Shown: piece after piece, positions 2,421-50,619 of the stretch
How positions within the stretch are numbered: the stretch's first letter is position 1
Layout: each line of letters starts with the position of its first letter
Origin: Ferruginibacter sp.
GTDB taxonomy: Bacteria; Bacteroidota; Bacteroidia; Chitinophagales; Chitinophagaceae
Length of the DNA: 64,000 bases
Direction: 5' to 3'
Assembly (NCBI GenBank): GCA_031408295.1
Contig: JANNVW010000103.1
Span: 9,270-73,269 of the forward strand
The notes under the pieces: model-generated
What the model was told of the DNA's origin: nothing
Databases searched by the model: none
What the model saw: only the letters and a program-made list of their open reading frames with translations
Position numbers and translations under genes: made by a program

Positions 2421-2684
2421 ATGGAGACGATAGAATTAAAAACACAATTGAAAAAGCAAATAGTAGAATTTTTAAACTTACTATCTGTAAAGCCTGAAGA
2501 TATTAAAGATGATGAACCCCTTTTTGGAGAAGGGCTAGGATTAGATTCTATAGACTCTATTGAGCTTATTGTGTTGCTAAACAGAGAATACGGCATTGTT
2601 ATAGAAGACCCAAAAGAAGGTCGCAAGGTATTAGTAGATATAAATACCATGGCTGATTATATTGAAAAAAACAGAAAAAAATAA
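2421..2684 (+). CDS. acyl carrier protein
   Basis: 87 aa, acidic, with phosphopantetheine-attachment motif LGLDSIDSIELI. Confidence 0.85.
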   Translation: METIELKTQLKKQIVEFLNLLSVKPEDIKDDEPLFGEGLGLDSIDSIELIVLLNREYGIVIEDPKEGRKVLVDINTMADYIEKNRKK

Positions 2685-3882
2685 TACCACTTTATTGAGC
2701 CGGATTGTTGTTACAGGAATGGGAATAATAAGTGCCATCGGAAATTCGGTAGCAGAAAATCATATGTCCCTTAAAGGAGAAAAAAATGGTATAACAGATT
2801 TAGAAATGTTTCCCTCCAATTTTGCTGGTAAAATGCCTGTAGGCGAAATTAAAATTAGCAACGAAGATTTAATAAAGAAACTTGATGTAGATGTGTCAGG
2901 TATTACACGCACTACTTTATTGGCAATTCATGCCATAGAAGAAGCCCTCCAAGATAGTAAACTTACCAATACGCAAATTGCAGATTTTGACACAGCCCTT
3001 ATTACTGCAACTACCGTTGGTGGAATGTGCTTGACAGATGAAATGTATAACGATTCTCAAAAAGACTCCATAGGCTCAGCATACCTTTCTTCTTACGATT
3101 ATGGTGCTACCAATATGGTTTTGCAAAAGCGTTACAATTTAAAAGGGCAAATAAATACCATCAACACAGCATGTTCATCTTCTGCCAATGCAATAATGTA
3201 TGGCGCAAGACTCATACAATCTGGTAGGGCTCGTAGGGCTATTGTTGGCGGTGTAGACAGTTTGGCAAAGTTTACCATTAATGGATTTAATGCGTTACAT
3301 ATTTTATCGCCAAATATTTGTATGCCATTTGATGAAGGTAGAACTGGTTTAAACTTAGGCGAGGGAGCTGCATACCTAGTTTTAGAAAGAGAAGAAGATG
3401 TGGTTGGTAAAAAAAAATATGCATCGCTAAGTGGTTATTGCAATGCAAACGATGCCTACCATGCTTCCTCATTATCAGACGAGGCTGATGGGCCGTATTA
3501 TGCTATGAAAGGTGCACTTGATGTGGCAAAACTAAACCCATCCCAAATAGATTTTATAAATGCACATGGTACTGCCACAGAAAATAATGATAAAATAGAA
3601 AGCGTAGCAATGCTTCGGCTGTTTGATAAACCACCTGCATTTGCTTCTACCAAAGGCAATGTTGGGCATACCCTTGGTGCGGCTGGCTCTATCGAAGCCG
3701 TTTATTGTATTTTAAATTTAGTGCATCAAGAACTTTATGCAGGGCTTCATTTTAAGAACCCCATTACAGCATTAGGCTTAATGCCTATTACGGCTTACAA
3801 AAAAACAGCACTCACACATATCATGTCCAACTCATTTGGTTTTGGCGGCAATTGTTCATCACTCCTTTTTTCCAAAGTTTGA
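2662..3882 (+). CDS. beta-ketoacyl-ACP synthase (FabF/KS-alpha like)
   Basis: Active-site Cys in NTACSSSANAI, His motifs HGTAT and GHTLGAAG, C-terminal SNSFGFGGNCSS. Confidence 0.9.
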   Translation: MKKTEKNNTTLLSRIVVTGMGIISAIGNSVAENHMSLKGEKNGITDLEMFPSNFAGKMPVGEIKISNEDLIKKLDVDVSGITRTTLLAIHAIEEALQDSKLTNTQIADFDTALITATTVGGMCLTDEMYNDSQKDSIGSAYLSSYDYGATNMVLQKRYNLKGQINTINTACSSSANAIMYGARLIQSGRARRAIVGGVDSLAKFTINGFNALHILSPNICMPFDEGRTGLNLGEGAAYLVLEREEDVVGKKKYASLSGYCNANDAYHASSLSDEADGPYYAMKGALDVAKLNPSQIDFINAHGTATENNDKIESVAMLRLFDKPPAFASTKGNVGHTLGAAGSIEAVYCILNLVHQELYAGLHFKNPITALGLMPITAYKKTALTHIMSNSFGFGGNCSSLLFSKV

Positions 3883-3886
3883 TATT

Positions 3887-4924
3887 ATGTTTTATATTCA
3901 TCAATCATCATCTATATGGACGCAAGAAAATTTTGCAGCTACAGATTTTAATGAACCTGTAGATAGAAAAATATTTGCATTGGAACCTGCTTACCAAGAT
4001 ATACCACCTGGTATATTAAGAAGAATGGGTAAAGCGGTAAGAATGGGCGTGGGTGCAGCTATGCCATTGCTACAAAATAATGTGAAACCTAACGGTATCA
4101 TTATAGGCACTACCAATAGTGGCAAAGAAGATTGTGTAAAATTTTTAAACCAAATAGTAGATTATAATGAGGGAATGCTCACCCCAATAAATTTTGTACA
4201 AAGCACACCCAATGCTACTGCCGCACAAATTGGATTGCTTACAAAAAACCATGGTTACAATATTACGCATACACAGTTGGGGCTTGCCTTTGAGTTTGCG
4301 GCAATAGATGCGGATATGCTTTTGCTAGAAAACCCATTGCACAATTATTTACTTGGTGCTGTAGATGATATTTCTACATTCAATTATAATTTTGAAGATA
4401 AGGCTGGAGCTTATAAAAAAGAAGATATTTCTACTAAAAATTTATATGAATCCAATACACCTGGTTGCATTGCAGGTGAGGCTGCTACCATGTTTTTAGT
4501 AAATAAAAATGCACAAAATGCTATTGCAAAACTTGTAGCTATTGATACTTTGCATAACGAAGATGAGCAAATACTGAAAGAAAAGCTACAATATTTTATT
4601 GAAAACAATTTACCCAATGGCGAAAAGATAGATTTGCTTTTGTCTGGCGAAAATGGCGACAATCGTTTAAACAAATATTACACAACTTGCGAAGCGGTAT
4701 TAAATGAAACAACATCTATTGTTCGCTATAAACATCTTACCGGTGAGTACCCAACAGCAACAGCCATGGGGCTTGTACTTGCTTGTACTATTTTACAAAC
4801 ACAACAATTGCCAACTACAATAATAAAAAGAAAGGGCAATAATGTAGCTTATAGAAATATTTTAATCTACAATAATTATAAAGCTGTTCAACACAGTTTT
4901 ATGCTGGTTTCAATTCCGAATTAG
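3887..4924 (+). CDS. KS-related protein lacking the catalytic Cys (chain-length-factor-like, Ketoacyl-synt_2-type)
   Basis: ATG at 3887 lies 4 nt after the KS stop, and the track ORF start at 3836 overlaps the KS. Paralogous to 12069-13127 (shared RRMGKAVRMGVGAA / RRMSRIIKMGVAAA and TPxxFxQSTxN). Confidence 0.7.
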   Translation: MFYIHQSSSIWTQENFAATDFNEPVDRKIFALEPAYQDIPPGILRRMGKAVRMGVGAAMPLLQNNVKPNGIIIGTTNSGKEDCVKFLNQIVDYNEGMLTPINFVQSTPNATAAQIGLLTKNHGYNITHTQLGLAFEFAAIDADMLLLENPLHNYLLGAVDDISTFNYNFEDKAGAYKKEDISTKNLYESNTPGCIAGEAATMFLVNKNAQNAIAKLVAIDTLHNEDEQILKEKLQYFIENNLPNGEKIDLLLSGENGDNRLNKYYTTCEAVLNETTSIVRYKHLTGEYPTATAMGLVLACTILQTQQLPTTIIKRKGNNVAYRNILIYNNYKAVQHSFMLVSIPN

Positions 4925-11309: not shown

Positions 11310-12075
11310 AAGGGGACAAATGTAATAATTTATCTAATGGGATAATGGTATAGCCCCTATTTTTAACTTCTTGTATAAAAGTTGTAAGGCTGTCTACTGT
11401 GGTTTTGCTGGTGTCATGAAAAAGAAATACAGCGCCAGGTTTTATTCCTCTATTAATTTTTTGCAACAATTTATTTTCGTCTTTTATTACCGTATCCATA
11501 GAGCGTACACTCCAGCCTATGGGTATGTAGCCACCATTTACAATAGATTTTTTTACATTAGGATTGGTAACACCATAAGGAGGCCTAAACAACTTCGGTT
11601 TTATGCCCAACACTTTCTCCATCTCGTTATCCATCATTTTTAAATCAGCAAGCATTTTTTTAGGGGGTAACATATCAAACCAAAAACTGTGAGAATAGCT
11701 GTGGTTGCCTATAATATGCCCATCAGCTTTTATTTGTTTCAAAATTTCTTCATTGCCTGCAATGCGATTGCCAATGCAAAAAAAAGTAGCAGGTACGTTT
11801 TGTTGTTTTAATAAACTTAAAATTTCTGCTGTGTGTTCTATAGCTGGGCCATCATCAAAACTTATGGCTATTTCTTTTTTATCTGTTTTAGCAGAACAAA
11901 CAATGGGTATAAAAAAATTAGAGCCTACAAAATAACAACCATAAAAAACGATTAAAGAATACACAATAAATGCCAATGCATAAAAATAAAATGGCAAGCC
12001 ATATTTAATATTTATCAAAACTAGCAATGCTGCCAAACAAACAAAAGCAATATTTGTATTTTTAAAATTTAGCAT
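11302..12075 (-). CDS. polysaccharide deacetylase (NodB homology domain) family protein
   Basis: Two N-terminal TM helices, then NodB motifs FDDGP and HSYSH, and RPPYG. Confidence 0.8.
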   Translation of the reverse strand: MLNFKNTNIAFVCLAALLVLINIKYGLPFYFYALAFIVYSLIVFYGCYFVGSNFFIPIVCSAKTDKKEIAISFDDGPAIEHTAEILSLLKQQNVPATFFCIGNRIAGNEEILKQIKADGHIIGNHSYSHSFWFDMLPPKKMLADLKMMDNEMEKVLGIKPKLFRPPYGVTNPNVKKSIVNGGYIPIGWSVRSMDTVIKDENKLLQKINRGIKPGAVFLFHDTSKTTVDSLTTFIQEVKNRGYTIIPLDKLLHLSPYA

Positions 12076-13127
12076 GCTGATATCAATAGCAAAGAGTGGT
12101 GAATATTTTGATAATGATTGTATATTAAAATCTTATTTATTTTTTTTTGTATTTTAATATTTGCTTGTACAGTTGCTGGTATTGTGTTGTACCTTATTAT
12201 ATTTGCACCCAACCATAGTGCAAATGCTGTAGATGTGGGATACTCCCCACACAAGTTTTTATAATTAGCTGTATTACTATTGGTAAAAGTATGCTGAGTT
12301 AGTTCATCATATATTTTATCTCCTGCGGCATCTCCATTCTTTCCCACAATAATCAAATCAATATCATTAACGCTTAGGGCATGCAAAACCAAAAACTTTT
12401 CAACCTGTTCAGTAATATCTGCCATATTATTAGGCTTATAAAAAGTATGCAAGCCATCTAGTTTTGCATAATCATTTTCAGAATGCTCATTTGCCAATAA
12501 AAAAAATGCGGCACCTTCACCAGCAATTGTTCCCTTAGCGTTAGTTTTATATAATTCGTTGTTGGCTATTGGGGTTTGTTTGTAAAGCCCCATTCTATTT
12601 AAAATAGTGTGGCTCACATTTGTAATTTCATCTATGGCACCAACCAATACATTTTGCACTTCATTTTCTTTTAACAGCATCATACCATCTAGCAAGGCAC
12701 TTTCAAAAGAAAAGCCACGGTGTACAAAGGCATTGTTATAATTATTGCATTGCAACATCAACCCTATTTGTGCGCCAATGGTATTATGGGTAGATTGTAT
12801 GAATGCTGTAGGGGTGAGCGTTTCCTCATTATACTCTACCATTTTTGTTATAAAAGAAACGGTATCTTCTAAGCAGCCATAAGCAGTGCCCGTAACAATG
12901 GCATCTGGTTTAGTAACCTCAGCTTCTTGCAAACATTCCATAGCTGCAGCCACACCCATTTTTATAATGCGGCTCATGCGGCGTATTAATTTTGCATCTA
13001 TAAAATCTTTGTAATCGGGTTCTATGCATGCAAGTCTGTTACCAGTATATGATACAACTTCCTCAAGAAAAGCTTGATGACCAAAACTGTTTTGAGGTGA
13101 TATATTTCCCGTAGCTCTTATGTACAT
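12069..13127 (-). CDS. KS-related protein lacking the catalytic Cys (chain-length-factor-like)
   Basis: Paralog of 3887-4924. ATG at 13125-13127 sits 6 nt downstream of a relic KS stop codon (13134-13136). Confidence 0.7.
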   Translation of the reverse strand: MYIRATGNISPQNSFGHQAFLEEVVSYTGNRLACIEPDYKDFIDAKLIRRMSRIIKMGVAAAMECLQEAEVTKPDAIVTGTAYGCLEDTVSFITKMVEYNEETLTPTAFIQSTHNTIGAQIGLMLQCNNYNNAFVHRGFSFESALLDGMMLLKENEVQNVLVGAIDEITNVSHTILNRMGLYKQTPIANNELYKTNAKGTIAGEGAAFFLLANEHSENDYAKLDGLHTFYKPNNMADITEQVEKFLVLHALSVNDIDLIIVGKNGDAAGDKIYDELTQHTFTNSNTANYKNLCGEYPTSTAFALWLGANIIRYNTIPATVQANIKIQKKINKILIYNHYQNIHHSLLLISAC

Positions 13128-13131
13128 AGTA

Positions 13132-13187
13132 ACTTATACTTTTGAAAAAATAAGTGATGAGCAATTTCCACCAAAACCAAATGAGTT
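13132..13187. repeat. 56-bp direct repeat, left copy (relic 3' end of a KS gene)
   Basis: 55/56 identical to 18631-18686 (single A/G difference at 13170 vs 18669). The reverse complement encodes NSFGFGGNCSSLIFSKV*. Confidence 0.9.
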
Positions 13188-13579
13188 ATTCTATTACTGA
13201 TAATGCGATAGCAACTGTAACGAATATTTTCATTATTACTAAGTATCGTTTTATAATGTGTAATTTTGGCTAGAACATTCCTCGAATAAATTCTCTCGAA
13301 TCCTCAAATTCGATTTTTAAAAACTGCAACTGTAGTTTCATTCGAAGGTACTATAATATTTTTCTAATTATTTTATGGAGAGGCTAAAAAAATTATTAAG
13401 CCAGGTTTTTATAATAAAGACAGCATTACAACGATGTGTGATTGAGGCTTATTCAAAAAGGGAGTAAAAAGTAGTCCAATGAATTAAAAGTTACAATATT
13501 TTTCAAATTATTTGTAAATGTCGATTTAGTGCCAAAGTGAGCGTAGTGTAAGAATATTTTAAAAAAAATCTTGCAACTG

Positions 13580-14029
13580 CTACAATCCCTCAACATTAAG
13601 ATGCTGAATAATACAATTGCCTAAAAAAATTGCTTTAGTGTTATTCCACTCAGTACCGAAATCCAAAATACCTCCTTTTTTTAAGTATGCCTTTGGTACT
13701 AATTTGGGTGTAACAAATTTAATAATAATGGCAGGGTTTTTTTTGCCTTGTAAATTACCTAATGTCACTTTAGTTATAGTATTAAAATATAAAACAATTT
13801 CCTTCACTTTTAATGTATCAGGTCTATTAGGTAAAGGAGGTTCCATTAAATAACCTTTAACACTTAATTTTAATCGAGCTAGTAGAAAATTTAGCTTTTT
13901 TCCAGCATACTCTGTTTTTTTTGCTTCGATACTATCTCTTAAATATGCTAATGTGTCTGTAATTACTGTCTGAGCAAATACATTGTTTGCACAAAAAACG
14001 ATTGAGATGCAGATGATTATTTTTTTCAT
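13580..14029 (-). CDS. small secreted hypothetical protein
   Basis: ATG at 14029 gives signal peptide MKKIIICISIVFCANNVFAQ. It is the last gene of the island operon. Confidence 0.5.
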   Translation of the reverse strand: MKKIIICISIVFCANNVFAQTVITDTLAYLRDSIEAKKTEYAGKKLNFLLARLKLSVKGYLMEPPLPNRPDTLKVKEIVLYFNTITKVTLGNLQGKKNPAIIIKFVTPKLVPKAYLKKGGILDFGTEWNNTKAIFLGNCIIQHLNVEGL

Positions 14030-14034
14030 AATTT

Positions 14035-14631
14035 TTATTGTTCGCAAATAGTTATTACTATTTCTATTGCTGTACCAGATGAATCATAAATAATTTTATA
14101 GTTCAATTCTTTAAACTGTCCATTCATTCGTTTATAATATTTTACACCAGCATTTAGGTTAGCACCTGTAAATAAAACATTCGCAAAAGCTTCTATGTCT
14201 TCTCTTGGGTAATGCTTAATTTCAAAAAAATACTTTACCCATCCTAACCATGTTAGATATAAAGATACACCATTTGAAAATTTAAAGGTCTTACTCCAGT
14301 TATTATTGAATGGAGGTGCTTGCACAGCACTATCTCTAGGAATGACAGTAGATAAATGATTAGCTTTGGCGGTATCGTCTACCATAATAGCCCACTCAGT
14401 GCTGTCGTGTGCAAAAACATAATCTGCACTAAAATTTGGATTTGCTGCTAGCCCATCTATTAAATGATAAATATCTAGTGGGCTAGGAGCGTTAGCAGCT
14501 CCAGTACTGTCGGTAGAACCTTTATTATGAGTGTGAATGCAGAATCGAATATTTTGGCCCGGATAGCTGGTTAAAATGAATTCCAAGTAATATACAAAAC
14601 CATCTATTATTGAGTAGATGATTTTAAACAT
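14035..14631 (-). CDS. hypothetical protein with JAB/MPN-like HxH...SxxD motif; paralog of the C-terminal domain of 15084-16580
   Basis: IHTHN...APSPLDIY motif with an upstream Glu (YYLEF). Collinear similarity to residues ~315-498 of the neighbouring protein (AIMVDDTAKA/AIVVTDTSAA; HYP...GVK...NGxFKEL). No signal peptide. Confidence 0.45.
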   Translation of the reverse strand: MFKIIYSIIDGFVYYLEFILTSYPGQNIRFCIHTHNKGSTDSTGAANAPSPLDIYHLIDGLAANPNFSADYVFAHDSTEWAIMVDDTAKANHLSTVIPRDSAVQAPPFNNNWSKTFKFSNGVSLYLTWLGWVKYFFEIKHYPREDIEAFANVLFTGANLNAGVKYYKRMNGQFKELNYKIIYDSSGTAIEIVITICEQ

Positions 14632-14658
14632 AATATTGAAATATAATGTATAAAAAAG

Positions 14659-15072
14659 CTAATACTTTTTTATATTCGTTACAATTTGAGTACCTAGTTC
14701 TAATTTCATTTTATTATCCCATGCTTGATATTTTAGTCTATAATACTCTGGTACGCTAACAACATATTTGTTTACTATTTCAATTTCAAAACCTCTTGTT
14801 GGTATTCCAATAAAATTTGGTAACGTTATGTAAAATCTTTTATAAAATGAAGTGCCATATCTTTTTCTACCCAAGTGATCAGGGGTACTAAAATTTATTG
14901 GCAAATTAATATCATTAATTAATTTTGATAGAGGGAAATTAATATAATTAGCTCTCAAATTATAGAGGCTATCAACTTTTTTCCTATTTATAGAATCTAT
15001 TTGACTAAGCGTTTGGGCTTGTATGCTACTACTAATTATAGCGAAAATTATTATACTATATATATATTTCAT
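14659..15072 (-). CDS. small secreted hypothetical protein
   Basis: Signal peptide MKYIYSIIIFAIISSSIQAQ. Very AT-rich. Confidence 0.5.
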   Translation of the reverse strand: MKYIYSIIIFAIISSSIQAQTLSQIDSINRKKVDSLYNLRANYINFPLSKLINDINLPINFSTPDHLGRKRYGTSFYKRFYITLPNFIGIPTRGFEIEIVNKYVVSVPEYYRLKYQAWDNKMKLELGTQIVTNIKKY

Positions 15073-15083
15073 TTAATATTTTT

Positions 15084-16580
15084 TTATAAACAAATTTTAA
15101 TTTTTAAATCTTGCAAAACATTATTAGTATCCCTTATTATTAAGGGTGAAAGTTCTTTAAATATACCATTTATTTTAATCATTATTTTTACACCCATATT
15201 GTATCGCTGTATCATATAGACTTGAGCATAAGTACGTAATAATATTTCTGGGTAATGGTTTAATCTTAATTTATTAAACGCATTTTCAAATTCTTTTTCC
15301 ATACTCAATGAATCCTGTCCAAAGATACCATAAAAATTTCCCCAAGTTGGGTTTACGGGTCGCCTTAAAGTGTCGCCAGTGGTAGGATTTATAATTATAG
15401 CAGTATCGCTATAATATATGGCAGAGTCTTTTGGATATAGGTTGTTAAAAAGTAGCGCTGCGGAGGTATCTGTAACTACAATAGCCAAATCTGTACCAGC
15501 TAGAGCACTCACAATAAATGACCGATATAGTTTTTTATTTACTAGTAACCTTGCTAAAGTAAGTGTGTATATATCACCATTGTCAGGTTGTGGATCTCCA
15601 TAGTCGTTGTGGGTATGCGCAAAGGCTACAATATTTTTATGATTGGGGCCTGTGCTGGTATCAAAAATGGTAATTTGGGAGGATATAAGTGTACTATTTA
15701 AAGCTGTATCTTTAAATACCTTATAGTGACCAGCACTATCAAAAGTAGAAATTGCATGTTCTACACCGTCATGCACTCCATTTCTTAGCACAATCATTCT
15801 TGGCTGAGTGTTTAAACTATCTATTATTTGTGTTGTTTTATTGCTATTTGCTATGGCTATTGTATCACATATAACAGGTTTTGGCTTCACAGTATCGCAA
15901 GGGACAATAAGAGTATTACCCCCTGCACAGGCATGGCATCCATCCGCATAAGCAGTACCACCTAGTACATTATTACAATCTCTTGTGCAGGGTAATTTAC
16001 CAGTAGTTCCGCCCACACATATATTGCAACTATCCAAATATGCGGCTCCACCTAAAACTCCAGCACAATCTGGTGGCGGTGGCACATAACAAGGCAATAA
16101 GCCTGTAGTACCTCCAACGCAAGTACTGCACTGGTCATAAAAAGCATTGCCACCCATTACTCCAGCACAATCTTCAAAATTTGGGTCTGGTAAATCATCG
16201 GGTAAATTAATTGGCCAATTGGGATGAAAATTACCTCCTCCAGTTGAGTTACCATAATGAGTAGCTCCGCTTGGTGGGTTTAAAGCATTCGCACCTGTTA
16301 GCATACTATATAACAATGCTTGATTTATCCCCCCACTTTCAGGTCCACCACCTCCCCCTTGCCCCATGGCATTGATAGTATCTTGAATAAAACCACCTAC
16401 AGCTTTTATAACTCTGGCTAACCATTCCCACAAAGATTCTCTTTCGGCACAAACTCCAGGATCTGTATAACACTCTGTTTGTGCATATACGTTTTGGCTA
16501 GTCTCTATCACTAAATTGCCACTTTTAAAAGTTGGCACTAATCCAATAAAAAATACGAGTAATAAAAATATTTTCTTCAT
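15084..16580 (-). CDS. secreted multidomain protein: Gly-rich linker, three Cys-rich repeats, C-terminal JAB/MPN-like domain
   Basis: Signal peptide. Repeats CAGVMGGNAFYDQCSTCVGGTTGLLPC / CAGVLGGAAYLDSCNICVGGTTGKLPC / CNNVLGGTAYADGCHACAGGNTLIVPC (15897-16172). Motif AFAHTHNDYGDPQPDNGDIY around 15586-15620. Confidence 0.5.
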   Translation of the reverse strand: MKKIFLLLVFFIGLVPTFKSGNLVIETSQNVYAQTECYTDPGVCAERESLWEWLARVIKAVGGFIQDTINAMGQGGGGGPESGGINQALLYSMLTGANALNPPSGATHYGNSTGGGNFHPNWPINLPDDLPDPNFEDCAGVMGGNAFYDQCSTCVGGTTGLLPCYVPPPPDCAGVLGGAAYLDSCNICVGGTTGKLPCTRDCNNVLGGTAYADGCHACAGGNTLIVPCDTVKPKPVICDTIAIANSNKTTQIIDSLNTQPRMIVLRNGVHDGVEHAISTFDSAGHYKVFKDTALNSTLISSQITIFDTSTGPNHKNIVAFAHTHNDYGDPQPDNGDIYTLTLARLLVNKKLYRSFIVSALAGTDLAIVVTDTSAALLFNNLYPKDSAIYYSDTAIIINPTTGDTLRRPVNPTWGNFYGIFGQDSLSMEKEFENAFNKLRLNHYPEILLRTYAQVYMIQRYNMGVKIMIKINGIFKELSPLIIRDTNNVLQDLKIKICL

Positions 16581-16599
16581 GTTGCTCTTTTATAGCAGA

Positions 16600-18072
16600 T
16601 TATAGTTTAATTACTTTTAGAGTTTTATGTTGATTGCCAGACTTTAGATCAACAATGTATATGCCAGCATTTAAATTTTGATTTACTTTAAGCGGCAAAG
16701 TATAAAAGCCAGTTTCCGACAATGTGCTTGTATTTGTGTAAACTGTTTTACCTTCTGTAGTCCTTAGAGATGTAATAATTTTTGCAGGTTGCTTTAGTTC
16801 AAAATCTATTGTAATAATATTTGTAAAAGGGTTTGGATAAGCTTTTAATGTATTGGGTACAAAAATACTTCCATCGTCTTTTGTTATATCTACCCATTCG
16901 TTTCTATCGGCAATCTTTTTATACTTTACAAGGCTTAAATATTGAGGTTTGTATGGCTCTTTTAGTTCTGGCAAATACATTTGTATATTGCCTACAATAT
17001 AAATACTATCATTGAGTTTTGTCTGTTGCAATTTTGCGCTTTCAAACTGCATAAGCACTGGGCTATTATAACTATAATGCGTTTTTTGATAATATGCTGT
17101 TTTTGTAAAAACAATAGAATGGGGTGTTATGGTAGCTTGAAATGGAATTGCTAAAGTGTCAGATTGTATCCAAACACCGGAAAGTATTCCGTTTTTATGC
17201 AAAATTGTTAATTCAATTGCAGTCGAATCTATTATATTTTTACCACTCCAATCGTAAGTAATAATGTAACCTTTGTAAATCCCTTCAATTTCTGTTTCAG
17301 ATAACTTATGTTCAATCTTTTGATAGGTATTTAAATTAGATTTACTCGTATATGCAGGTGGTTGAATTGCTTTTGCAGTAGAACTAGGTTCATTATTTTC
17401 TCCGTTGTCATTTATTGTTCTCAACTCTTGCTTGGCAGAAAAATCTCCTCTTTGGCTAGCTTGTTTCAACCAATATTTTGCGCTATCTATATTTTTTGCT
17501 ACTCCATAGCCATTACGTAATGCAATACCTAAAAAGTACATACTTTTCCTATTATCGCCTCTGGTTGCTTTAGCTTCTTTTGCAAATAAGCTCACTGCTT
17601 GTTTATAATCTTGTTTGCAACCTAGTCCTTTGAATAACATATAGGCTTGGTTATACTCACACAAGGCATTGCCAGCTAATGTGCCAATGGCAAAATATTG
17701 AAAAGATTTAAAAAAATCTTGTTCACTTTTGCTAGTATTTTTGTACAGCATTCCCAAATGAAACCAAGCATTTGTATTACCCTCTTTAGCAGCTTTTAAA
17801 AACCAAATAGTAGCCTTTGTAATATTTTTGGTTGTGCCCTTGCCGTCTCTATACATTAAGCCTACCATCTGCATAGCTTGGTGTTTACCAAGTTTTGCGC
17901 ATTCTAAATAAAGCTTAAATGCCTCCTCCTCATTATACGACCCATTTTTATTGCTTAAATATTTTTGGGCAGCATACATTTTAGTATTAATAATAGAGTC
18001 AATAGCACTTATTTGTTGAGCACTCAATGAAGGTGAGAACAGTAGTAAAAAAGAAATAAAGGCTATTTTCAT
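16600..18072 (-). CDS. Sel1-like repeat protein with T9SS C-terminal sorting domain
   Basis: Signal peptide. SLR repeats (e.g. AFKLYLECAKLGKHQAMQMVGLMYRDGKGTTKNITKATIWFLKAAKEGN). C-terminal ~80 aa KAYPNPFTNIITIDFEL...GIYIVDLKSGNQHKTLKVIKL fit the Por_Secre_tail pattern. Confidence 0.75.
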   Translation of the reverse strand: MKIAFISFLLLFSPSLSAQQISAIDSIINTKMYAAQKYLSNKNGSYNEEEAFKLYLECAKLGKHQAMQMVGLMYRDGKGTTKNITKATIWFLKAAKEGNTNAWFHLGMLYKNTSKSEQDFFKSFQYFAIGTLAGNALCEYNQAYMLFKGLGCKQDYKQAVSLFAKEAKATRGDNRKSMYFLGIALRNGYGVAKNIDSAKYWLKQASQRGDFSAKQELRTINDNGENNEPSSTAKAIQPPAYTSKSNLNTYQKIEHKLSETEIEGIYKGYIITYDWSGKNIIDSTAIELTILHKNGILSGVWIQSDTLAIPFQATITPHSIVFTKTAYYQKTHYSYNSPVLMQFESAKLQQTKLNDSIYIVGNIQMYLPELKEPYKPQYLSLVKYKKIADRNEWVDITKDDGSIFVPNTLKAYPNPFTNIITIDFELKQPAKIITSLRTTEGKTVYTNTSTLSETGFYTLPLKVNQNLNAGIYIVDLKSGNQHKTLKVIKL

Positions 18073-18168
18073 AATTTGTAATTATATATTTACCAATAGT
18101 AATACTTATTTTTATGTGTGGTAACATTTACAACACATTTTTTATGGGTTTTTTGTACATTATTTATG

Positions 18169-18176
18169 ATACATTT
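18169..18176 (+). promoter_or_regulatory. candidate Bacteroidota -7 box (TAnnTTTG)
   Basis: TACATTTG lies 16 nt upstream of the ATG at 18192. Confidence 0.3.
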
Positions 18177-18191
18177 GAAAAAAATATAACA

Positions 18192-18593
18192 ATGCACTAT
18201 CCAAAAATTGAGTTTTTGAGAAGAGTTAAAGGATTTACTCAACAGAAAATGTCCATTGAGTTAGAAATGGATCAAGCAGAATACCAAAGAGTAGAAAGTG
18301 GGCAAAGAAACAACATCGAAGATTCACTGCTATCAAGAATTGCTTTGGTATTGGGTACTACTAAGGAAGAATTAGCTAGCCCACAGCCTTATATTTTTTA
18401 TGTGAATAATAGTGATACTGCATCTAAGAATAATGCACCTTTTGGAAACCAAGAATTTCATAACGACAACGCAGAACTTATGAAAATTTTAAAAACCAAT
18501 ATGGAACAGCTAAATAGGCTAATAGAAAATAACCAGCGATTAATAGAAGCAAATTTGGAATTGATTTCTAAATTCACAAATGTGGCTAAATGA
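18192..18593 (+). CDS. XRE-family helix-turn-helix transcriptional regulator
   Basis: LRRVKGFTQQKMSIELEMDQAEYQRVESGQRN is an HTH_3-type motif. Divergent from the island operon. The track ORF start at 18114 is less likely. Confidence 0.7.
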   Translation: MHYPKIEFLRRVKGFTQQKMSIELEMDQAEYQRVESGQRNNIEDSLLSRIALVLGTTKEELASPQPYIFYVNNSDTASKNNAPFGNQEFHNDNAELMKILKTNMEQLNRLIENNQRLIEANLELISKFTNVAK

Positions 18594-18630
18594 TTAAATA
18601 TTGGTTTGAGAAATAAGTAATTTGTAAGTT

Positions 18631-18686
18631 ACTTATACTTTTGAAAAAATAAGTGATGAGCAATTTCCGCCAAAACCAAATGAGTT
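18631..18686. repeat. 56-bp direct repeat, right copy (functional 3' end of the KS gene)
   Basis: See 13132-13187. Confidence 0.9.
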
Positions 18687-19832
18687 GGAGAGTACATGTT
18701 TTACGTTAGCATTTTCGATGATTGATTGTACTGGTACAAATGGCAAATCCTTCATAGGTGTTTGCAAACGTAGGTTAGGAAAAATAATATTGTGCTGCAT
18801 AGAGAGTAGCGAAATAACAGCTTCTAACCCCCCACATGCACCAAGTGTATGACCAGTGTAAGCTTTGGTAGAACTCATTTTAGGATACTGCCCATCAAAC
18901 AAGCGCTTAATAGCTGTACCTTCTGCTATATCGTTATTTTGTGTGCCGGTACCATGTAAATTTATGTAATCGATATCGCTGGGTTGTAAGCCACTTTTTT
19001 TTAGTGCTCCACTCATAGCCAAGTAAGAGCCTACACCATCTGGTGAAGATGCTGTTTGATGGTATGCATCGTTGGCATTGCAATAACCACTTAAAATAGC
19101 TTTAGGTATTTTACTTAAAGTAGCGGCTACTTTTTCTGATACCAATACTATATAACCTGCGCCCTCACCAAGGTTTAGTCCTCTGCGGTTTTCATCAAAT
19201 GGTTGGCAAAATTGCTCATCCAATATCATGAGGGTATTAAAACCATTGAGGGTAAATTTTGTCATGGCATCTGCACCGCCTGCAACTACTACATCTAGTA
19301 TATTATTTTTGATAAGCCTAGCGCCATAAAAAATAGAATTGGCAGAGGAAGAGCAAGCAGTGCTAATGGTAGTTATATAATCTTTAATACCGAGCTTGTC
19401 TGCTACAAGTTCTGTAACAGCACCGCACTCATGGTTCACTACATTGCGTAGTTTACCCTTTGCGTCATCTGCAAGAAAAGTTGTATAGAAATTTTCAGAC
19501 TTATCCATTCCACCGACAGAATTAGCAGAAACAAAACCAGTACGCAAGCTGTCCAAATTTTCTATACCTGCATCAGCCAATGCTTCTTTAGCAGCTACCA
19601 AACTTAATAGAGCTGTTCTGCTTTTTATGTCTTCTAACCCAGAAAGTAAGCCAAGCTCTTCATTGGTTAGTTTAACTTCTGCTACAGGCAGCCTGTTTTT
19701 ATGCAAGGAGTTCAGGTAATGCATATTCCCCATTCCTATCTTTTCGTTTTTGAGTGCATCAAAACACTCGGCAACATTATTGCCAATGGAAGAAATTGCC
19801 CCTAGGCCTGCCACAAAAACTTGTTCACTCAT
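18633..19832 (-). CDS. beta-ketoacyl-ACP synthase (FabF/KS-alpha like)
   Basis: Active-site Cys in STACSSSANSI, plus HGTGT and GHTLGACG. Paralog of 2662-3882. Confidence 0.9.
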   Translation of the reverse strand: MSEQVFVAGLGAISSIGNNVAECFDALKNEKIGMGNMHYLNSLHKNRLPVAEVKLTNEELGLLSGLEDIKSRTALLSLVAAKEALADAGIENLDSLRTGFVSANSVGGMDKSENFYTTFLADDAKGKLRNVVNHECGAVTELVADKLGIKDYITTISTACSSSANSIFYGARLIKNNILDVVVAGGADAMTKFTLNGFNTLMILDEQFCQPFDENRRGLNLGEGAGYIVLVSEKVAATLSKIPKAILSGYCNANDAYHQTASSPDGVGSYLAMSGALKKSGLQPSDIDYINLHGTGTQNNDIAEGTAIKRLFDGQYPKMSSTKAYTGHTLGACGGLEAVISLLSMQHNIIFPNLRLQTPMKDLPFVPVQSIIENANVKHVLSNSFGFGGNCSSLIFSKV

Positions 19833-27090: not shown

Positions 27091-27183
27091 TATGTCAAAG
27101 CTATAAAAAAGATTAGTTACAGTATTAAAAACTAAAATTATGCGTTAAGAAAGTTTTCCTTAACAACTTGTCTAGAAAAATTG

Positions 27184-27191
27184 TACATTTG
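27184..27191 (+). promoter_or_regulatory. candidate -7 box (TAnnTTTG)
   Basis: TACATTTG lies 19 nt upstream of the antitoxin ATG. It is the same octamer as upstream of the XRE gene at 18169. Confidence 0.3.
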
Positions 27192-27209
27192 GTTATTAAT
27201 ATTTCGAGT

Positions 27210-27461
27210 ATGAAAACATTAACCGTTGGCGAATTTAAAGCGCAATTTAGTAGTGTAATAGAAATGATAAAAGCCGGTGAAGAAGTGGAAGTAACTTTTG
27301 GAAAACAAAAGGAAGTTATTGGTGTGTTTAAACCAAAGGAAAAGAAGAAGGATACAAGGGTGAAAATCGGATTGCTTAATAATATGAAAGGCTATAGAAT
27401 GGCAAAAGATTTTACCGAAACAACTTTTGAAGATTTCCCCATGAAAGAATTATATGAATAA
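27210..27461 (+). CDS. type II antitoxin (Phd/YefM-like)
   Basis: MKTLTVGEFKAQFSSVIEMIKAGEEVEVTFGK. 83 aa. Overlaps the downstream PIN gene by 8 nt. Confidence 0.65.
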   Translation: MKTLTVGEFKAQFSSVIEMIKAGEEVEVTFGKQKEVIGVFKPKEKKKDTRVKIGLLNNMKGYRMAKDFTETTFEDFPMKELYE

Positions 27462-27855
27462 ATTTTTAATGGATACCCATATTTTATTGTGGCTTTATTT
27501 TAATTCAGATAAATTATCAAAAAATGTCAATTCACTTTTTAAACAAAGTGGGAATACCTTTTATGTGAGTACTGTTTCTATTTGGGAGATTAGTATAAAA
27601 TTTCATTTAGGAAAACTTGACTTAGGTAATTTGAATCCATTCGATTTAAGAAACTTGATTCTAGAAAATAATATTAAAATTATCAATCTTGATTCTGATA
27701 CTGCCGCTACTTTGTTTCAATTAAATGCCACTTACCACAAAGACCCTTTCGACAGAATGCTTATTTGGCAAGCTATACAAAACAATTATACTTTTATTAC
27801 TGATGATAAAAATATAAAATTGTACAAAAGTGAAGGCTTAAAAACGGTTTGGTAA
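27454..27855 (+). CDS. vapC: type II toxin, PIN domain (VapC family)
   Basis: LMDTHILLWL N-terminal acidic motif, SIWEISIK, and DPFDRMLIWQA...ITDD C-terminal acidic residues. Confidence 0.8.
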   Translation: MNKFLMDTHILLWLYFNSDKLSKNVNSLFKQSGNTFYVSTVSIWEISIKFHLGKLDLGNLNPFDLRNLILENNIKIINLDSDTAATLFQLNATYHKDPFDRMLIWQAIQNNYTFITDDKNIKLYKSEGLKTVW

Positions 27856-28941: not shown

Positions 28942-31900
28942 CTATCCATGTGTTTCCGATTTATATCCTAATTTAAAGATTTCTTCTACGGCCCAATTAC
29001 TCCATTTGTTAGCATCAACTTTAAAATGCGAAAGCCCTCTTTCAAATGTATATCTTCCAAAATCTCCATATCTCGAAGTTCCTCTTCCATATTCTGTGAC
29101 CATTGAATCTAATATTGCATTTTGTCCTCTATCGGAATCTTTAAATTTTTTTGATTTATAATCAATTTTATATTTTTTATCAATTTCTGTATTTGTAGGA
29201 AATTTATTTGGCAAATCACTTTTATATGGCGGTTGTATTTTGGCTAAATCAAATTTTAATTTTATTCCTGAGTGAATTGTGAAATCTATAACTCCTTTTG
29301 CATAATCCCTCAAAAGAATATGCGGATATACTTTCTCTTTATTAAAAATTTCCTCAAATATGTATTCACTTAATTCTTTCAGAGCACTTAGTTTTTCAGA
29401 GCGTACAGCACTTCCATAGGCTACAGCAAATAATCTCTCATAAACATAAGGGTCATTTACATTTTCAAATTTTTGTAATAATGGTTTTAGCAATTGAATT
29501 CTATTTTCTAGGAGATTAACTAAACCTTTTGTAGCTGCATCTCTTAAATACCTATTACAGCTAGTAAGAAACCAAGCTAAGGTCATTGAAGTGAGTAATA
29601 TCACATCATCATCTACATAACTTTTATCTTCTTCCTGCCATGACCAATCAATGAGTCTTTTTACTATTGAGTTGTAGTCATATTTATCATTTATATAAAT
29701 TGTCCACCAAGCATCTCTACTAGCTAGGGTATATCTCAATAATTGTTTATGTAAAAAATCTGCATTAAAAAAATGATTGGGTCTAACAGATACTGAGATT
29801 AACATTTCAAGAAATTTCTCATTTGTTCCATTATATTTTATTGCTACTAAATTTACATATTCAAGAGTTTTCTCTGTAAAAGATTCACTTTTCCTCCAAA
29901 ATATACTTTCAATAAATGCTTCACATATAGAAAAACACTTTTGAACTCTTGGTACTAATTCGTACAATTCTTTTTTAATTCTTTCAGGTAATTGAATGGA
30001 TAAGGCTTCAAGTATTCCTTGATTCATAGAGCAATCATTTTCAGACTTTGTGATTTCATACAAATAACCGGATTTGAACGCTAAGAGAGGATTTTTTTTA
30101 TTGACGATATATTTGTCTATTATAGCAGAAGCAAATAGGTGGTCTTCAAATCTTTCATAAGCTAAATAAATACCTTTTTCATGAGTTGTATATGTTCTAT
30201 CCCAATATAAATCTTCACTAAAAATCCCTTCCGAAATTAACATGTCAAAATAATTACTCCCTTTAGTACAATTTTTTCTAAATATTTCATGTGCAACTTC
30301 ATATGCATATGCATAGGGGATATATCTTTTTTTATTCTCAACCTTCCACTCTAAAAGTGAATCAATTACTCTTTGTACAAGATTTATAGAAGGTGAAAAA
30401 TCCAGATTTTTGGGATTAGAAAGTTTTTCATTAACACTATCAATAAAAAAGTTAAAAGATTGCTTTATACCCCAAAAACCATCAGTAAGTTTTTTTAATC
30501 CTCTATTGACTAATCCTTCACATAATAGTTTTAAAAATAGAGGGTTTTGAAATTCGGGTTGAAACAACGGCATATTAGGTTGCTCAATACCATAGGCTAG
30601 AAAAAAATGCTTAGCAGCTTCATATTCAAATCCTCCAAAACCATTGTGATAAACACGTAACATATCATCATCAGTAATGATTTCTTGGGGCGCTATTAAT
30701 TTTATGTATGAAGTTCTTATTGAAACGACTAAACCTAACCATTTAAACTTTTTTATCAAATCAATAAAGTTCTTTAAATAATCTGACCAAAAGTTTTTAC
30801 CATTTCCTTCATTTAAAGCGTCTATAAAAATAATGATGCGTTTACCTGTAGATTCTGCTTTCGAATTTAATGCGCCAAGGAAAACATATTCGTTTGATGG
30901 GAAACGAAGTTGGTTACTTAAAATCTGAGTCCACGGATTATCATCGTTTGTAAAATGTTGCCCAAGGAGAAAAAGACTCAGATAACCATTTTTATAACGA
31001 TTGTTAACAATGTCAGCAAGTAAATGTGACTTTCCCATTCCTGCTTTACTTTCAATTATTAAATATGGTGAGTTTACAAGAGTACAAGTTTGAGAATTTA
31101 GGAATTCACTTAATTCATTTAATGACCGACTTAAAAGTCGTAAATAATGTATTTCATTATTATTAGGCTTTATTGAATATTTATATTTGTCAGGGTCTTT
31201 CTGAACCTCCAATTGTTGAGATGAATACAGTTCTTGATTATAAGTATCACAACTTTCAATAGTAGAAGTAATTATATTTTGAATAAGAATATAGTCAATA
31301 TTTTTAATATCACTTAAATCTAATCCTTTAAACCAAATTATAATTTTTTCAAAATCAGTAATAATTTTTTTTACTACCTTTTTTTTACTTTTACTGTTAA
31401 GATGTGAATTAATATTTCCAAATTTTTCAAAAATGTTTTTAAAATAAACGTCTATTTGGCTTTTTAGATTTTCATCTCTAGCAAATCCATCAAACATTTT
31501 TGCGATAGGCAATTCAAAATTTAATTTAGGAGTATATCTTTTATTGAGAAGAATTTGTGTAGCATTTTTAATATTATCTTCAAACCAATCATCAGTAAAT
31601 TCTGTTTTGTTAAACCAAAAATAAATCATTCCCTCATGTTCTCTTTTTGAAAGCATTTCTACTAATTCGAAATACCCCCAATAAATGAACTTTACGTTCA
31701 TGCCTTTTTCCTGTGATAACTTTTCCCATTCTTTTACTTTTATATCCCATTTATCAAGCATAGATTTTTTACCGACTAATTTTGCATCAGGCATGTTAAT
31801 TGGAATTGCAACATAATATATAACTAATTTAGGATGTTTATCTAAGGCTGTTTTAACCGATTCATCTAAATCTCTCCATTGGGTATTGCCTAAAGAATTT

Positions 31901-32106
31901 AAAAAATATTTAGCTTGCCATCCCCATTCTGTATCATCATTCATTTGCAATATACATTCTACTCCAGCATCGGGTTTACCCTTTCTTATAAAACGTTTTG
32001 AATTTATGGGGTTTATTTTCCTTGCTAGTTGGCATACCAACTCCTCAAAACCCTCGTCTTGTTTACCATTAATTGTCCGAATATTTAAGAAATTAATATC
32101 TGTCAC
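28942..32106 (-). CDS. Mrr-like PD-(D/E)xK nuclease + NACHT/STAND-type P-loop NTPase + helical repeat region (candidate antiphage Avs/bNACHT-like protein)
   Basis: GTG start. N-terminal GFEELVCQLA...GKPDAGVECIL...WGWQAKYF (31909-31971). Walker A SKAGMGKS (31027-31050). Walker B IIIFIDALNEG. More than 600 aa of helical sequence follow. Confidence 0.65.
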   Translation of the reverse strand: MTDINFLNIRTINGKQDEGFEELVCQLARKINPINSKRFIRKGKPDAGVECILQMNDDTEWGWQAKYFLNSLGNTQWRDLDESVKTALDKHPKLVIYYVAIPINMPDAKLVGKKSMLDKWDIKVKEWEKLSQEKGMNVKFIYWGYFELVEMLSKREHEGMIYFWFNKTEFTDDWFEDNIKNATQILLNKRYTPKLNFELPIAKMFDGFARDENLKSQIDVYFKNIFEKFGNINSHLNSKSKKKVVKKIITDFEKIIIWFKGLDLSDIKNIDYILIQNIITSTIESCDTYNQELYSSQQLEVQKDPDKYKYSIKPNNNEIHYLRLLSRSLNELSEFLNSQTCTLVNSPYLIIESKAGMGKSHLLADIVNNRYKNGYLSLFLLGQHFTNDDNPWTQILSNQLRFPSNEYVFLGALNSKAESTGKRIIIFIDALNEGNGKNFWSDYLKNFIDLIKKFKWLGLVVSIRTSYIKLIAPQEIITDDDMLRVYHNGFGGFEYEAAKHFFLAYGIEQPNMPLFQPEFQNPLFLKLLCEGLVNRGLKKLTDGFWGIKQSFNFFIDSVNEKLSNPKNLDFSPSINLVQRVIDSLLEWKVENKKRYIPYAYAYEVAHEIFRKNCTKGSNYFDMLISEGIFSEDLYWDRTYTTHEKGIYLAYERFEDHLFASAIIDKYIVNKKNPLLAFKSGYLYEITKSENDCSMNQGILEALSIQLPERIKKELYELVPRVQKCFSICEAFIESIFWRKSESFTEKTLEYVNLVAIKYNGTNEKFLEMLISVSVRPNHFFNADFLHKQLLRYTLASRDAWWTIYINDKYDYNSIVKRLIDWSWQEEDKSYVDDDVILLTSMTLAWFLTSCNRYLRDAATKGLVNLLENRIQLLKPLLQKFENVNDPYVYERLFAVAYGSAVRSEKLSALKELSEYIFEEIFNKEKVYPHILLRDYAKGVIDFTIHSGIKLKFDLAKIQPPYKSDLPNKFPTNTEIDKKYKIDYKSKKFKDSDRGQNAILDSMVTEYGRGTSRYGDFGRYTFERGLSHFKVDANKWSNWAVEEIFKLGYKSETHG

Positions 32107-48717: not shown

Positions 48718-49665
48718 ATGCAAGAAACAAAACCACTAATTTCTATTGCTTTAGCCACTTACAATGGAGAAAAATATCTTGTACAACAAATAGAAACTTT
48801 ACTACATCAAACGTACCTCAATATTGAAATAGTAGTTTCCGATGATGGCTCTTCCGACAATACAATTAGCATTTTAGAATCGTATGCTAAAAAAACTAAC
48901 AACTTTTTTGTGTTTAAAAATGCTGGATTACATGGCATAAAACGAAATTTTGAAAACGCACTTAAATATTGCAAGGGAGCTTATATAGCTTTTGCTGACC
49001 AAGATGATATTTGGATGCCCAATAAAATTGAAAGACTATTTGCTGCAATCGGTGATAATGCATTATCATATCACAATTCTCTTTTTGTAGACGATGCAGG
49101 AAATTCTTTGGAAAGAACTTTTGCTACAAGGTTAAATATGTATGAAGGTGATGATGGTAAGGCTTTTTTATTTTGTAATTGTGTATCAGGTCATGCCATG
49201 TTATTTAGCCGAAATTTATTAGATATTGTGATTCCTTTTGCTGATGCAGTACACCACGACTGGTGGCTTGCATTTATAGCCGCAGAAAATGGTGGAATAA
49301 AATATGTAGATGAAGTATTGGTGCATTATAGACAACACACACAAAGCGAAACAGATTTTTTTGGATTAAAAAATGAAAAAGTTGACCGTGAAAAAATTGA
49401 GAAGGAGTGTATAGAGTGGTTTGATACTTGTGCAAATGCAACAAGCAAACATCAGGCATTTTTAAAAAAATGGGCAAGTGTTTATAAAAATAAAGACAAA
49501 CATATATTTAGTTGGAAAATGTTTTTCATGGCACTAGGTGCGCTTGATACCTTATATTTTATGCGTAAAAAAAGTATTAAGAGTAAATTTTTTCTTGTGC
49601 TTACTAGTAGCTGGGGGCAAGGGATAAAAAGATTTGTTAGAAATTTAAAAAAAGGGGAGAACTAG
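48718..49665 (+). CDS. family 2 glycosyltransferase (rhamnosyltransferase-like)
   Basis: ISIALATYNGEKYL...VSDDGSSD...DQDDIW. Confidence 0.8.
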   Translation: MQETKPLISIALATYNGEKYLVQQIETLLHQTYLNIEIVVSDDGSSDNTISILESYAKKTNNFFVFKNAGLHGIKRNFENALKYCKGAYIAFADQDDIWMPNKIERLFAAIGDNALSYHNSLFVDDAGNSLERTFATRLNMYEGDDGKAFLFCNCVSGHAMLFSRNLLDIVIPFADAVHHDWWLAFIAAENGGIKYVDEVLVHYRQHTQSETDFFGLKNEKVDREKIEKECIEWFDTCANATSKHQAFLKKWASVYKNKDKHIFSWKMFFMALGALDTLYFMRKKSIKSKFFLVLTSSWGQGIKRFVRNLKKGEN

Positions 49666-49677
49666 TATAAAAGTATA

Positions 49678-50619
49678 ATGGAAAATAGTAAAAATAAAAT
49701 CGAGTTAGTATCTATTGCTATGGCAACTTACAATGGCGAGCAATTTATAGAAAAACAACTGGATAGCCTTTTAGCACAAACATACAGCAATTTGGAAATA
49801 ATTATTTCTGATGATGGCTCAACAGACAGCACTGTTGCTATTGTTGAGAGATATATGAAGGCGTTTGCTTCTATTTCTCTTTTTAAGAACCCTCTAAAGA
49901 ATGGCATAAATAAAAATTTTGAAAATGCCATTAAACATTGTAATGGAGATTTTATTGCACTATGTGATCAGGACGATATTTGGCTGCCTCAAAAAATAGA
50001 AATCCTTGTAAATAACATTGGCTCAGCAGCACTTGTTTACCATAATTCTTTATTTATTGATGCAGATGAAAATTCAATGGGTAGAACGATTGCAGATAAG
50101 TTAAACTGCTATAGTGGTCAAGATTCCAAAACATTTCTACTTTTAAATTGTGTGTCTGGACACGAATGCATGTTTGCCAAAAGGCTTGTCAATATTGCTC
50201 TGCCAATACCATCAGCAAAATATTTTGATTGGTGGTTAGCATTTGTAGCAGCAGAAAATGGAGGCTTAAAATATATAGACGAAGTATTGGTGCATTATCG
50301 TCAACATGAAAAAAGCAAAACGGATATGCTTGCATTAAAAAAAACAACAAAGCACAAAAAGGAATTTCTAATATACGAAGAAGAGCTAGAGTGGTATAAT
50401 AGTTGTGCTAAAGTAGCAAGCTTAAATAAATCATTTTACGAACTTTGGGCAAAATATTATAAACAAAGAAAAAACCAATGGTTTAGTTTTTCACTATTTT
50501 TATTGGCAAGAAAAAATGCTAAAACTTTATACTTTATAAAAAAGAAAAGCAGTATAAGTCGTTTTTTTGAGTCGCTAAAACTGCTTTGGGGGCTTAAAAT
50601 GAAAACCTTTTTTGGTTAA
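49678..50619 (+). CDS. family 2 glycosyltransferase, tandem paralog of 48718-49665
   Basis: VSIAMATYNGEQFI...ISDDGSTD...DQDDIW. Collinear with its neighbour over the full length. Confidence 0.8.
   Translation: MENSKNKIELVSIAMATYNGEQFIEKQLDSLLAQTYSNLEIIISDDGSTDSTVAIVERYMKAFASISLFKNPLKNGINKNFENAIKHCNGDFIALCDQDDIWLPQKIEILVNNIGSAALVYHNSLFIDADENSMGRTIADKLNCYSGQDSKTFLLLNCVSGHECMFAKRLVNIALPIPSAKYFDWWLAFVAAENGGLKYIDEVLVHYRQHEKSKTDMLALKKTTKHKKEFLIYEEELEWYNSCAKVASLNKSFYELWAKYYKQRKNQWFSFSLFLLARKNAKTLYFIKKKSSISRFFESLKLLWGLKMKTFFG

Follow-up and report, generated by a model that had tools for sequence, protein, structure and literature searches.

A toxin-like gene cassette between duplicated KS 3' ends in a predicted flexirubin cluster of Ferruginibacter

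The DNA described here is a stretch of 64,000 nucleotides (nt) from Ferruginibacter sp. (GenBank assembly GCA_031408295.1, contig JANNVW010000103.1, positions 9,270 to 73,269 of the forward strand), which at its full length is referred to as the window. It carries a gene cluster predicted to specify the biosynthesis of flexirubin. Two marker families were identified above their curated cut-offs, LolA2_flexi (215.5 bits, cut-off 125) and LolB2_flexi (127.2 bits, cut-off 60), and the cluster also holds genes for a beta-ketoacyl-ACP synthase (KS; ACP, acyl carrier protein), a CLF-like partner of KS, an ACP, a thioesterase, an O-methyltransferase, and halogenase-like and CrtI-like proteins. An earlier inspection of the letters alone, made without database searches (the sequence-only reading), had spoken of an insert inside a pigment cluster, and the marker scores agree with that description.

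The insert in question separates the KS gene from the CLF gene. It is a lineage-specific insertion of 5,439 bp at the tightly coupled KS/CLF junction, flanked on both sides by a direct duplication of 60 nt. It adds one more example to a familiar type of scar, with a toxin-like cassette not yet characterised as its cargo. What the sequence-only reading had observed is confirmed, save for the description of the insert as AT-rich, while its interpretation is supported in part; both are taken up below.

The duplicated KS end and its borders

The two copies of the repeat (Table 1) are identical at 58 of 60 positions and lie 5,499 nt apart, start to start. When the 60-mer was searched with up to three mismatches only these two sites were recovered in the window, against 0.00 expected from 100 shuffles. 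The only other long direct repeat of high identity in the 64 kb is formed by two paralogous glycosyltransferase genes. The first mismatch (13170 A / 18669 G) corresponds to GGT/GGC on the coding strand and is synonymous; the second (13131 A / 18630 T) falls inside the 6-nt spacer past the stop codon. Being 39 nt apart they bracket an identical core of 38 nt.

The duplicated sequence consists of the last 54 nt of the KS gene, stop codon included, and the spacer. In the right copy it is the end of an intact 399-aa KS gene read from the minus strand, the product of which terminates in NSFGFGGNCSSLIFSKV and a stop. In the left copy the 17 residues NSFGFGGNCSSLIFSKV and the stop are encoded again, but stop codons precede them and a start is lacking; this copy ends at 13128, the base preceding the CLF ATG (13127–13125). 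Owing to this flanking duplication the C-terminus of KS is still the native one, and so are the 60 nt upstream of CLF. The sequence-only reading had noted repeats of 56 nt with 55 identities and a single synonymous GGT/GGC difference, had taken the right copy for the real end of KS and the left one for a relic situated 6 nt before the CLF start, and had concluded that the insertion occurred in the KS 3' end and left the gene restored. All of this holds, except that the repeat proves to be 4 nt longer.

Similarity between the copies breaks off sharply at 13187/18686. The window contains a second, mirrored module with a paralogous KS (KS2), whose stop codon (3880–3882) is followed after a 4-nt spacer by the ATG of CLF2 at 3887; this is the tight KS–CLF spacing (3882/3887) to which the sequence-only reading had compared the relic, and it was found as described. 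Past the breakpoint the end of KS2 matches the real KS for a further 13 nt but does not match the relic, and for this reason 13187 is a true breakpoint. At the other border, if the CLF ATG is taken as deleted from the right copy (18623–18626 versus 13121–13127), the bases TACA (minus strand) extend the match. This may be due to chance, or to an original duplication that reached into CLF.

Might the repeat simply reflect chance or a conserved protein motif, or else an old rearrangement common to the whole family? The KS C-terminal motif is indeed strongly conserved, and over 63 nt the 3' ends of KS2 and KS (3816–3878 and 18637–18699) share 86% DNA identity. Against this, a match of 58 in 60, over a stretch that includes six non-coding bases, is not expected at all in shuffled sequence, and in no relative is the insert present or the KS end repeated on the same strand. 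Taken together the repeat statistics and the relatives refute both possibilities, which we consider practically out of the question. The 6-nt spacer within the repeat differs among all relatives and is not conserved, which indicates that the repeat sequence originated in this lineage and is not a generic conserved att site.

Table 1. Coordinates in the window of the repeat copies, the inserted segment and the genes discussed
Feature	Positions	Strand
Right repeat copy: last 17 codons and stop of KS (18633–18686) plus spacer (18627–18632)	18627–18686	-
Left repeat copy: relic of the KS 3' end, not translatable, with the spacer	13128–13187	-
Inserted segment, 5,439 bp	13188–18626	
KS, a beta-ketoacyl-ACP synthase of 399 aa; complete by comparison with relatives	18633–19832	-
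CLF-like partner of KS, 352 aa; complete by comparison with relatives	12069–13127	-
Paralogous KS2, 3' end unoccupied, 4 nt before CLF2	2662–3882	+
XRE-family helix-turn-helix regulator, divergent from the Sel1 gene	18114–18593	+
Sel1-repeat protein, 490 aa; signal peptide, C-terminal sorting domain for type IX secretion (T9SS)	16600–18072	-
Secreted protein, 498 aa; signal peptide, Gly-rich stretch, three Cys-rich repeats, variable C-terminal domain of type A	15084–16580	-
Exported protein, 137 aa; putative immunity partner of type A	14659–15072	-
Orphan C-terminal domain of type B, 198 aa, without N-terminal delivery part	14035–14631	-
Exported protein, 155 aa; putative immunity partner of type B	13580–14047	-
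Non-coding stretch, 392 nt, from the last gene of the insert to the relic; no homology found	13188–13579	

The window derives from a metagenome-derived contig, and one might therefore ask whether the integrated arrangement is an artefact of assembly, or one of two states, the metagenome assembler having used the 60 nt in common to thread in a cassette which, in the sampled community, is a separate circle or lies elsewhere. A Logan unitig from SRR20217191 (k = 31) corresponds to positions 13140–18660 at 100% identity and confirms both inner junctions. It ends inside the repeats, where a k = 31 graph must branch, so that it fits the integrated state and a circle plus an empty site alike. The insert is also present in SRR20217180. 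Unitigs of both samples end exactly at 19234, a position within KS, and a further one stops within CLF, at 12759; neither break can be put down to a repeated k-mer in the window. The breaks may reflect a second haplotype around the insert in these communities, and to that extent they favour an artefact. On the other hand, the two copies differ at two positions and each is joined to insert sequence in the independent assembly, the two junctions agree with one another, the relic breaks off cleanly, and reads, being longer than a repeat of 60 nt, should have resolved it by spanning it. We regard an artefact of this sort as very improbable.

The KS/CLF junction in related genomes and the character of the insert

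With KS as the query, 56 loci were obtained from species-representative genomes, nearly all of them Chitinophagaceae or Ferruginibacter metagenome-assembled genomes. The KS proteins retrieved have at most 83% amino-acid identity to that of the window, and exact-protein look-ups for the window KS and CLF gave no match. The comparison set consisted of the 46 loci in which both KS and CLF were readable, and the comparison is between species. In these 46 loci the order ACP–KS–CLF–deacetylase–LolA2 is conserved, and the KS and CLF of the window align with their homologs from end to end. None of the 46 possesses any of the six genes of the insert, nor a second KS end on the same strand. The sole extra copy of the KS 3' end in the relatives is on the opposite strand (44–48 of 54 nt), which is consistent with the end of the paralogue.

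The sequence-only reading had suggested looking for relatives with an empty site, and such relatives exist: in 18 of the 46 loci KS and CLF are 1–8 nt apart. In the remaining 28 the gap measures 85–410 nt and is filled by small palindromic elements which resemble REP (repetitive extragenic palindromic) sequences or MITEs (miniature inverted-repeat transposable elements). At least four families of these were recognized, in 12, 6, 3 and 2 loci respectively, and five remain unclassified; examples, from loci L001–L048, are L002 (6222–6372) and L004 (11200–11611). In many of the loci with palindromes the KS frame appears to be one or two codons longer before its stop. None of the motifs of these elements is found in the window.

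From the 46 loci it follows that the insert is lineage-specific, that the ancestral junction was tight, and that insertions are tolerated there. The KS/CLF junction is a recurrent insertion hot spot. The palindromic elements resemble the insert in occupying the junction, and in this way illustrate that separation of KS from CLF is tolerated; unlike the insert they are short (85–410 nt), non-coding and palindromic, and do not duplicate the KS end.

In composition the insert resembles its host. Its GC content is 32.1% versus 33.5% for the rest of the window, and 28% of windows of the same size are at least as AT-rich; nor is its tetranucleotide distance an outlier, since at least the same distance is reached by 11.5% of windows. 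The description as an AT-rich island has therefore to be dropped, and a compositionally foreign island is ruled out.

Searches of the six predicted proteins against Pfam, NCBIfam, PADLOC and PHROGs revealed no recombinase, integrase or transposase. No tRNA was found in the insert, nor any match to an Rfam family, and a tRNA or RNA gene as the target was discarded. The absence of integrase, transposase and tRNA remarked upon in the sequence-only reading is thus upheld. Terminal inverted repeats are likewise lacking (the best inverted alignment of the ends scores 20 versus a shuffle mean of 19), and with no transposase and a duplication of 60 nt a DDE transposon, insertion sequence or MITE was rejected. 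Nothing elsewhere in the window is similar to the insert, and its non-coding ends contain no relics of other genes and resemble neither the fetched loci nor other parts of the window. A plasmid or phage origin was also rejected, since PLSDB, INPHARED and IMG/VR gave no match at either the DNA or the protein level. An exact 36-mer of the repeat had no matches in JGI metagenome contigs and IMG/VR, and neither this search nor those of the plasmid, phage and IMG/VR collections revealed a second insertion site or a circular form.

Cargo genes and their homologs

Five of the six genes in the insert are co-directional with the operon (Table 1). The exception encodes the XRE-family regulator, which shows weak similarity to phage repressor families and lies 33 nt from the right repeat. 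Because its homolog is 130 aa long, its translation probably starts at a Met codon at about 18192. The sorting domain of the Sel1-repeat protein was recognized through Por_Secre_tail [PF18962, 32.9 bits, cut-off 27; TIGR04183, 34.2 bits, cut-off 23]. No match to a T9SS sorting domain was obtained with the 498-aa protein, which is a putative polymorphic toxin.

The two parts of the 498-aa protein evolve separately. Homologs share 36–49% identity with its N-terminal part, while in the C-terminal part the values extend from 70% to as little as 18%. P0004 and P0005, for example, are 48–49% identical in the former and 31–32% in the latter. P0020 and P0059 keep the N-terminal part, and their C-terminal domain, at 18–19% identity and poorly aligned, contains the motif SKDGSKYRG[RH]G. 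A GH19-like (lysozyme- or chitinase-like) domain was considered for these two proteins and abandoned, there being no support in Pfam. The 198-aa protein of the insert is homologous, at 29% identity, to the domain with which the 498-aa protein ends, and is nearer to the C-terminal domains of P0004 and P0005 (39–41%). Stand-alone fragments of this domain, 113–144 aa in length, were also found. In a full scan of 1.84 billion representative proteins the domain is confined to 35 clusters, and always constitutes either the C-terminus of a protein or a short stand-alone fragment.

The small exported proteins vary with the domain they follow. The 137-aa type is found after type A in L060 (71% identity) and L085 (35%), and the 155-aa type after type B in L062 (42%) and L066 (40–43%); L066 contains tandem orphan pairs, each a C-terminal domain with its partner. 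In every context examined (L057, L060, L062, L066, L085, L086 and L088) the Sel1-T9SS protein stands beside a toxin-like gene. The pair of Sel1-T9SS protein and secreted protein of about 420–510 aa is recurrent, and a small exported protein comes next wherever downstream sequence is present. We infer that the Sel1 protein is the secretion partner of the toxin-like protein.

Polymorphic toxin-immunity loci with orphan modules are known from the cdiA-CT/cdiI genes of contact-dependent inhibition (CDI) and from Rhs systems. As predicted from its genes, the cargo has the defining layout of such a locus. With CDI, Rhs and TANFOR toxins it shares a conserved N-terminal part followed by an exchangeable C-terminal domain, a small gene downstream which co-varies with the type of that domain, and orphan pairs farther downstream. 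It differs in having no TANFOR, Rhs or CDI domain, in the shortness of its proteins (about 420–510 aa), and in its constant pairing with a Sel1 protein that bears a T9SS sorting domain. Its C-terminal domain, unlike theirs, has no counterpart among known toxin families or solved folds, the activity being deduced from layout. For TANFOR toxins of Bacteroidetes, T9SS-linked genes have been reported nearby [PMC7073777], and in this respect the cassette resembles the TANFOR loci.

Several points tell against a toxin function. The C-terminal domain has no match in Pfam, NCBIfam, PADLOC or the PDB sequences. An AlphaFold model of the 198-aa orphan domain (m2ee5559f0b87) is of good quality (pLDDT 86.8, pTM 0.82) and finds no fold match in the PDB (best E 0.028, TM 0.27). 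Toxicity and immunity alike are read from the arrangement of the genes.

Four residues of the orphan domain are conserved, namely His33, His35, Asp53 and Tyr55. The corresponding pattern HxH...P..D.Y led us to consider a JAB/MPN-like metallopeptidase, which was set aside since there is no Pfam match and the model has no PDB fold match. An earlier structure model built from 11 sequences (pLDDT 63) was too poor and was not used. Alignments of the C-terminal domain hold no stretch of sufficient conservation for a profile search, and one made with the full-length alignment turned up nothing but unrelated proteins having the Cys-rich repeat in common.

We found no description of an effector system that combines a Sel1-T9SS protein with a secreted protein of this kind. 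Together, the Sel1-T9SS protein, the protein with a swappable C-terminal domain and the small exported partner are a candidate T9SS-linked antibacterial system, in which the candidate effector domain has a confidently predicted fold and no match among solved structures.

In other genomes relatives of the cassette occupy unrelated neighbourhoods. That of L062 lies between RecQ and UvrA, that of L066 adjoins QueG and ClpB, that of L086 adjoins Wzy and DarT genes, and that of L087/L088 a radical-SAM operon. The unit composed of regulator, Sel1 gene and toxin gene recurs in L060 and L087/L088, whose surroundings contain no genes for phage functions, conjugation or an integrase.

Routes of insertion

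Campbell-type integration is the most likely route, with a probability that we put at about one half. A circular intermediate carrying one copy of the 60 nt would have recombined once with the chromosomal copy; after a single crossover of this type there are two direct copies with sharply defined outer borders, and the target gene is left whole. The enzyme would have been supplied from outside the insert, either as a site-specific recombinase acting in trans or by the homologous recombination system of the host. The two mismatches which flank the 38-nt core would then represent differences between the incoming and the resident copy, though later mutations would look identical. Since five of the six genes are co-directional with the operon, CLF and the flexirubin genes downstream of it would still be reachable by read-through or from a promoter in the 392-nt end. 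No site of the Bacteroidete type (TTTG, 17–23 nt, TAnnTTTG) was found upstream of CLF inside the insert, nor is this motif enriched in the window. The insert is now probably a fixed passenger rather than an active element.

The sequence-only reading had likened the event to the integration of elements at att sites. The geometry, that is, regeneration of the KS 3' end together with a relic on the far side, and the empty site in relatives speak for its view. It receives no support in respect of a recombinase, foreign composition, terminal inverted repeats, or a second insertion site or circular form, and att-type integration is best described as no more than a plausible route.

There are further considerations which weigh against integration of a circle. 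The large open reading frames (ORFs) of the 64-kb window include no recombinase. In the homologous loci inspected, relatives of the cassette have no integrase within 10 kb and no KS fragments, and L062, the one locus in which both flanks were searched, has no flanking repeats. A circle would first have had to acquire the 60 nt, complete with the non-conserved spacer proper to this lineage. The spacer weakens a generic att reading, and fits the leading alternative, a duplication arising in situ, equally well or better.

In such an event a staggered break with nicks 60 nt apart, or a template switch during replication, would have captured the cassette, and fill-in would have copied the 60 nt on both sides. 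The outcome would be a target-site duplication of exceptional length, formed with neither an att site nor a circle. Both copies carry the lineage-specific spacer, as if both came from this chromosome; the sharp borders, the lack of a recombinase, the host-like composition and the presence of the cassette at unrelated sites in other genomes would all be in keeping with it. However, the duplications made by known bacterial transposition measure 2–15 bp, a range which 60 bp exceeds, the insert has no terminal inverted repeats, and the cassette of L062 has no flanking duplication. We consider in situ duplication to be unlikely, though not far-fetched.

Alternatively the insert may be what is left of a larger prophage, or of an element resembling an integrative and conjugative element, which had its own integrase and from which internal deletions removed all but the cargo and the regulator. 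The geometry is that of e14 at icd of Escherichia coli, where the element supplies the 3' end of the gene and a pseudo-icd relic of 163 bp is left behind [PMC6379469], and an XRE-type regulator with weak similarity to phage repressors stands at one end of the insert. Against it, there are just 33 nt between regulator and right repeat and 392 nt of non-coding DNA at the left end. The units of L060 and L087/L088 are equally free of phage, conjugation and integrase genes, the phage, plasmid and IMG/VR collections gave no matches, and the composition is host-like. A remnant of this description seems to us rather doubtful.

By analogy, the closest precedent for the insert is e14 at icd. In common with e14 and phage 21 at this site it is inserted in the 3' end of a gene, leaves the gene intact, and has a direct repeat of the pseudo-3' end on its far side. 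It differs from e14, which encodes its own integrase and is a recognizable prophage, in being devoid of recombinase and phage genes, in measuring 5.4 kb, and in its host-like composition.

Islands which lack a recombinase are known in staphylococci as pseudo-SCC elements (SCC, staphylococcal cassette chromosome), which reside at an att site at the 3' end of rlmH/orfX. They too consist of cargo alone, enclosed by direct repeats where a conserved gene has its 3' end, any mobility being provided in trans. The differences are that SCC elements have a known recombinase family and many independent insertions, whereas the insert described here is a single instance with no candidate recombinase. It is conceivable, though we think it a long shot, that the cassette is a small mobile unit without a recombinase, which carries a conserved gene end and is moved in trans or by host recombination. 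Precise loss across the 60-nt repeats would then restore the KS–CLF operon, so that toxin carriage and continuity of the pigment operon would be switched together, and the unitig breaks at 12759 and 19234 would mark a co-existing allele without the insert. If this were true, toxin-immunity loci would have an added route by which to spread in the Bacteroidota. If the insert is no more than a scar, it offers a clear case from nature of foreign cargo entering a translationally coupled biosynthetic operon with neither gene damaged, and it would indicate that the KS/CLF junction of flexirubin clusters tolerates separation.

Elsewhere in the window, just outside the pigment cluster, a gene for a PIN-domain protein (27454–27855) overlaps the end of a small upstream ORF (27168–27461), and the two are probably a toxin-antitoxin pair. 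An ORF of 1,054 aa with no Pfam match occupies 28942–32106. The paralogous glycosyltransferase genes mentioned above belong to family 2 and are adjacent (48718–50619); their repeat consists of 116 nt at 81% identity, 969 nt apart.

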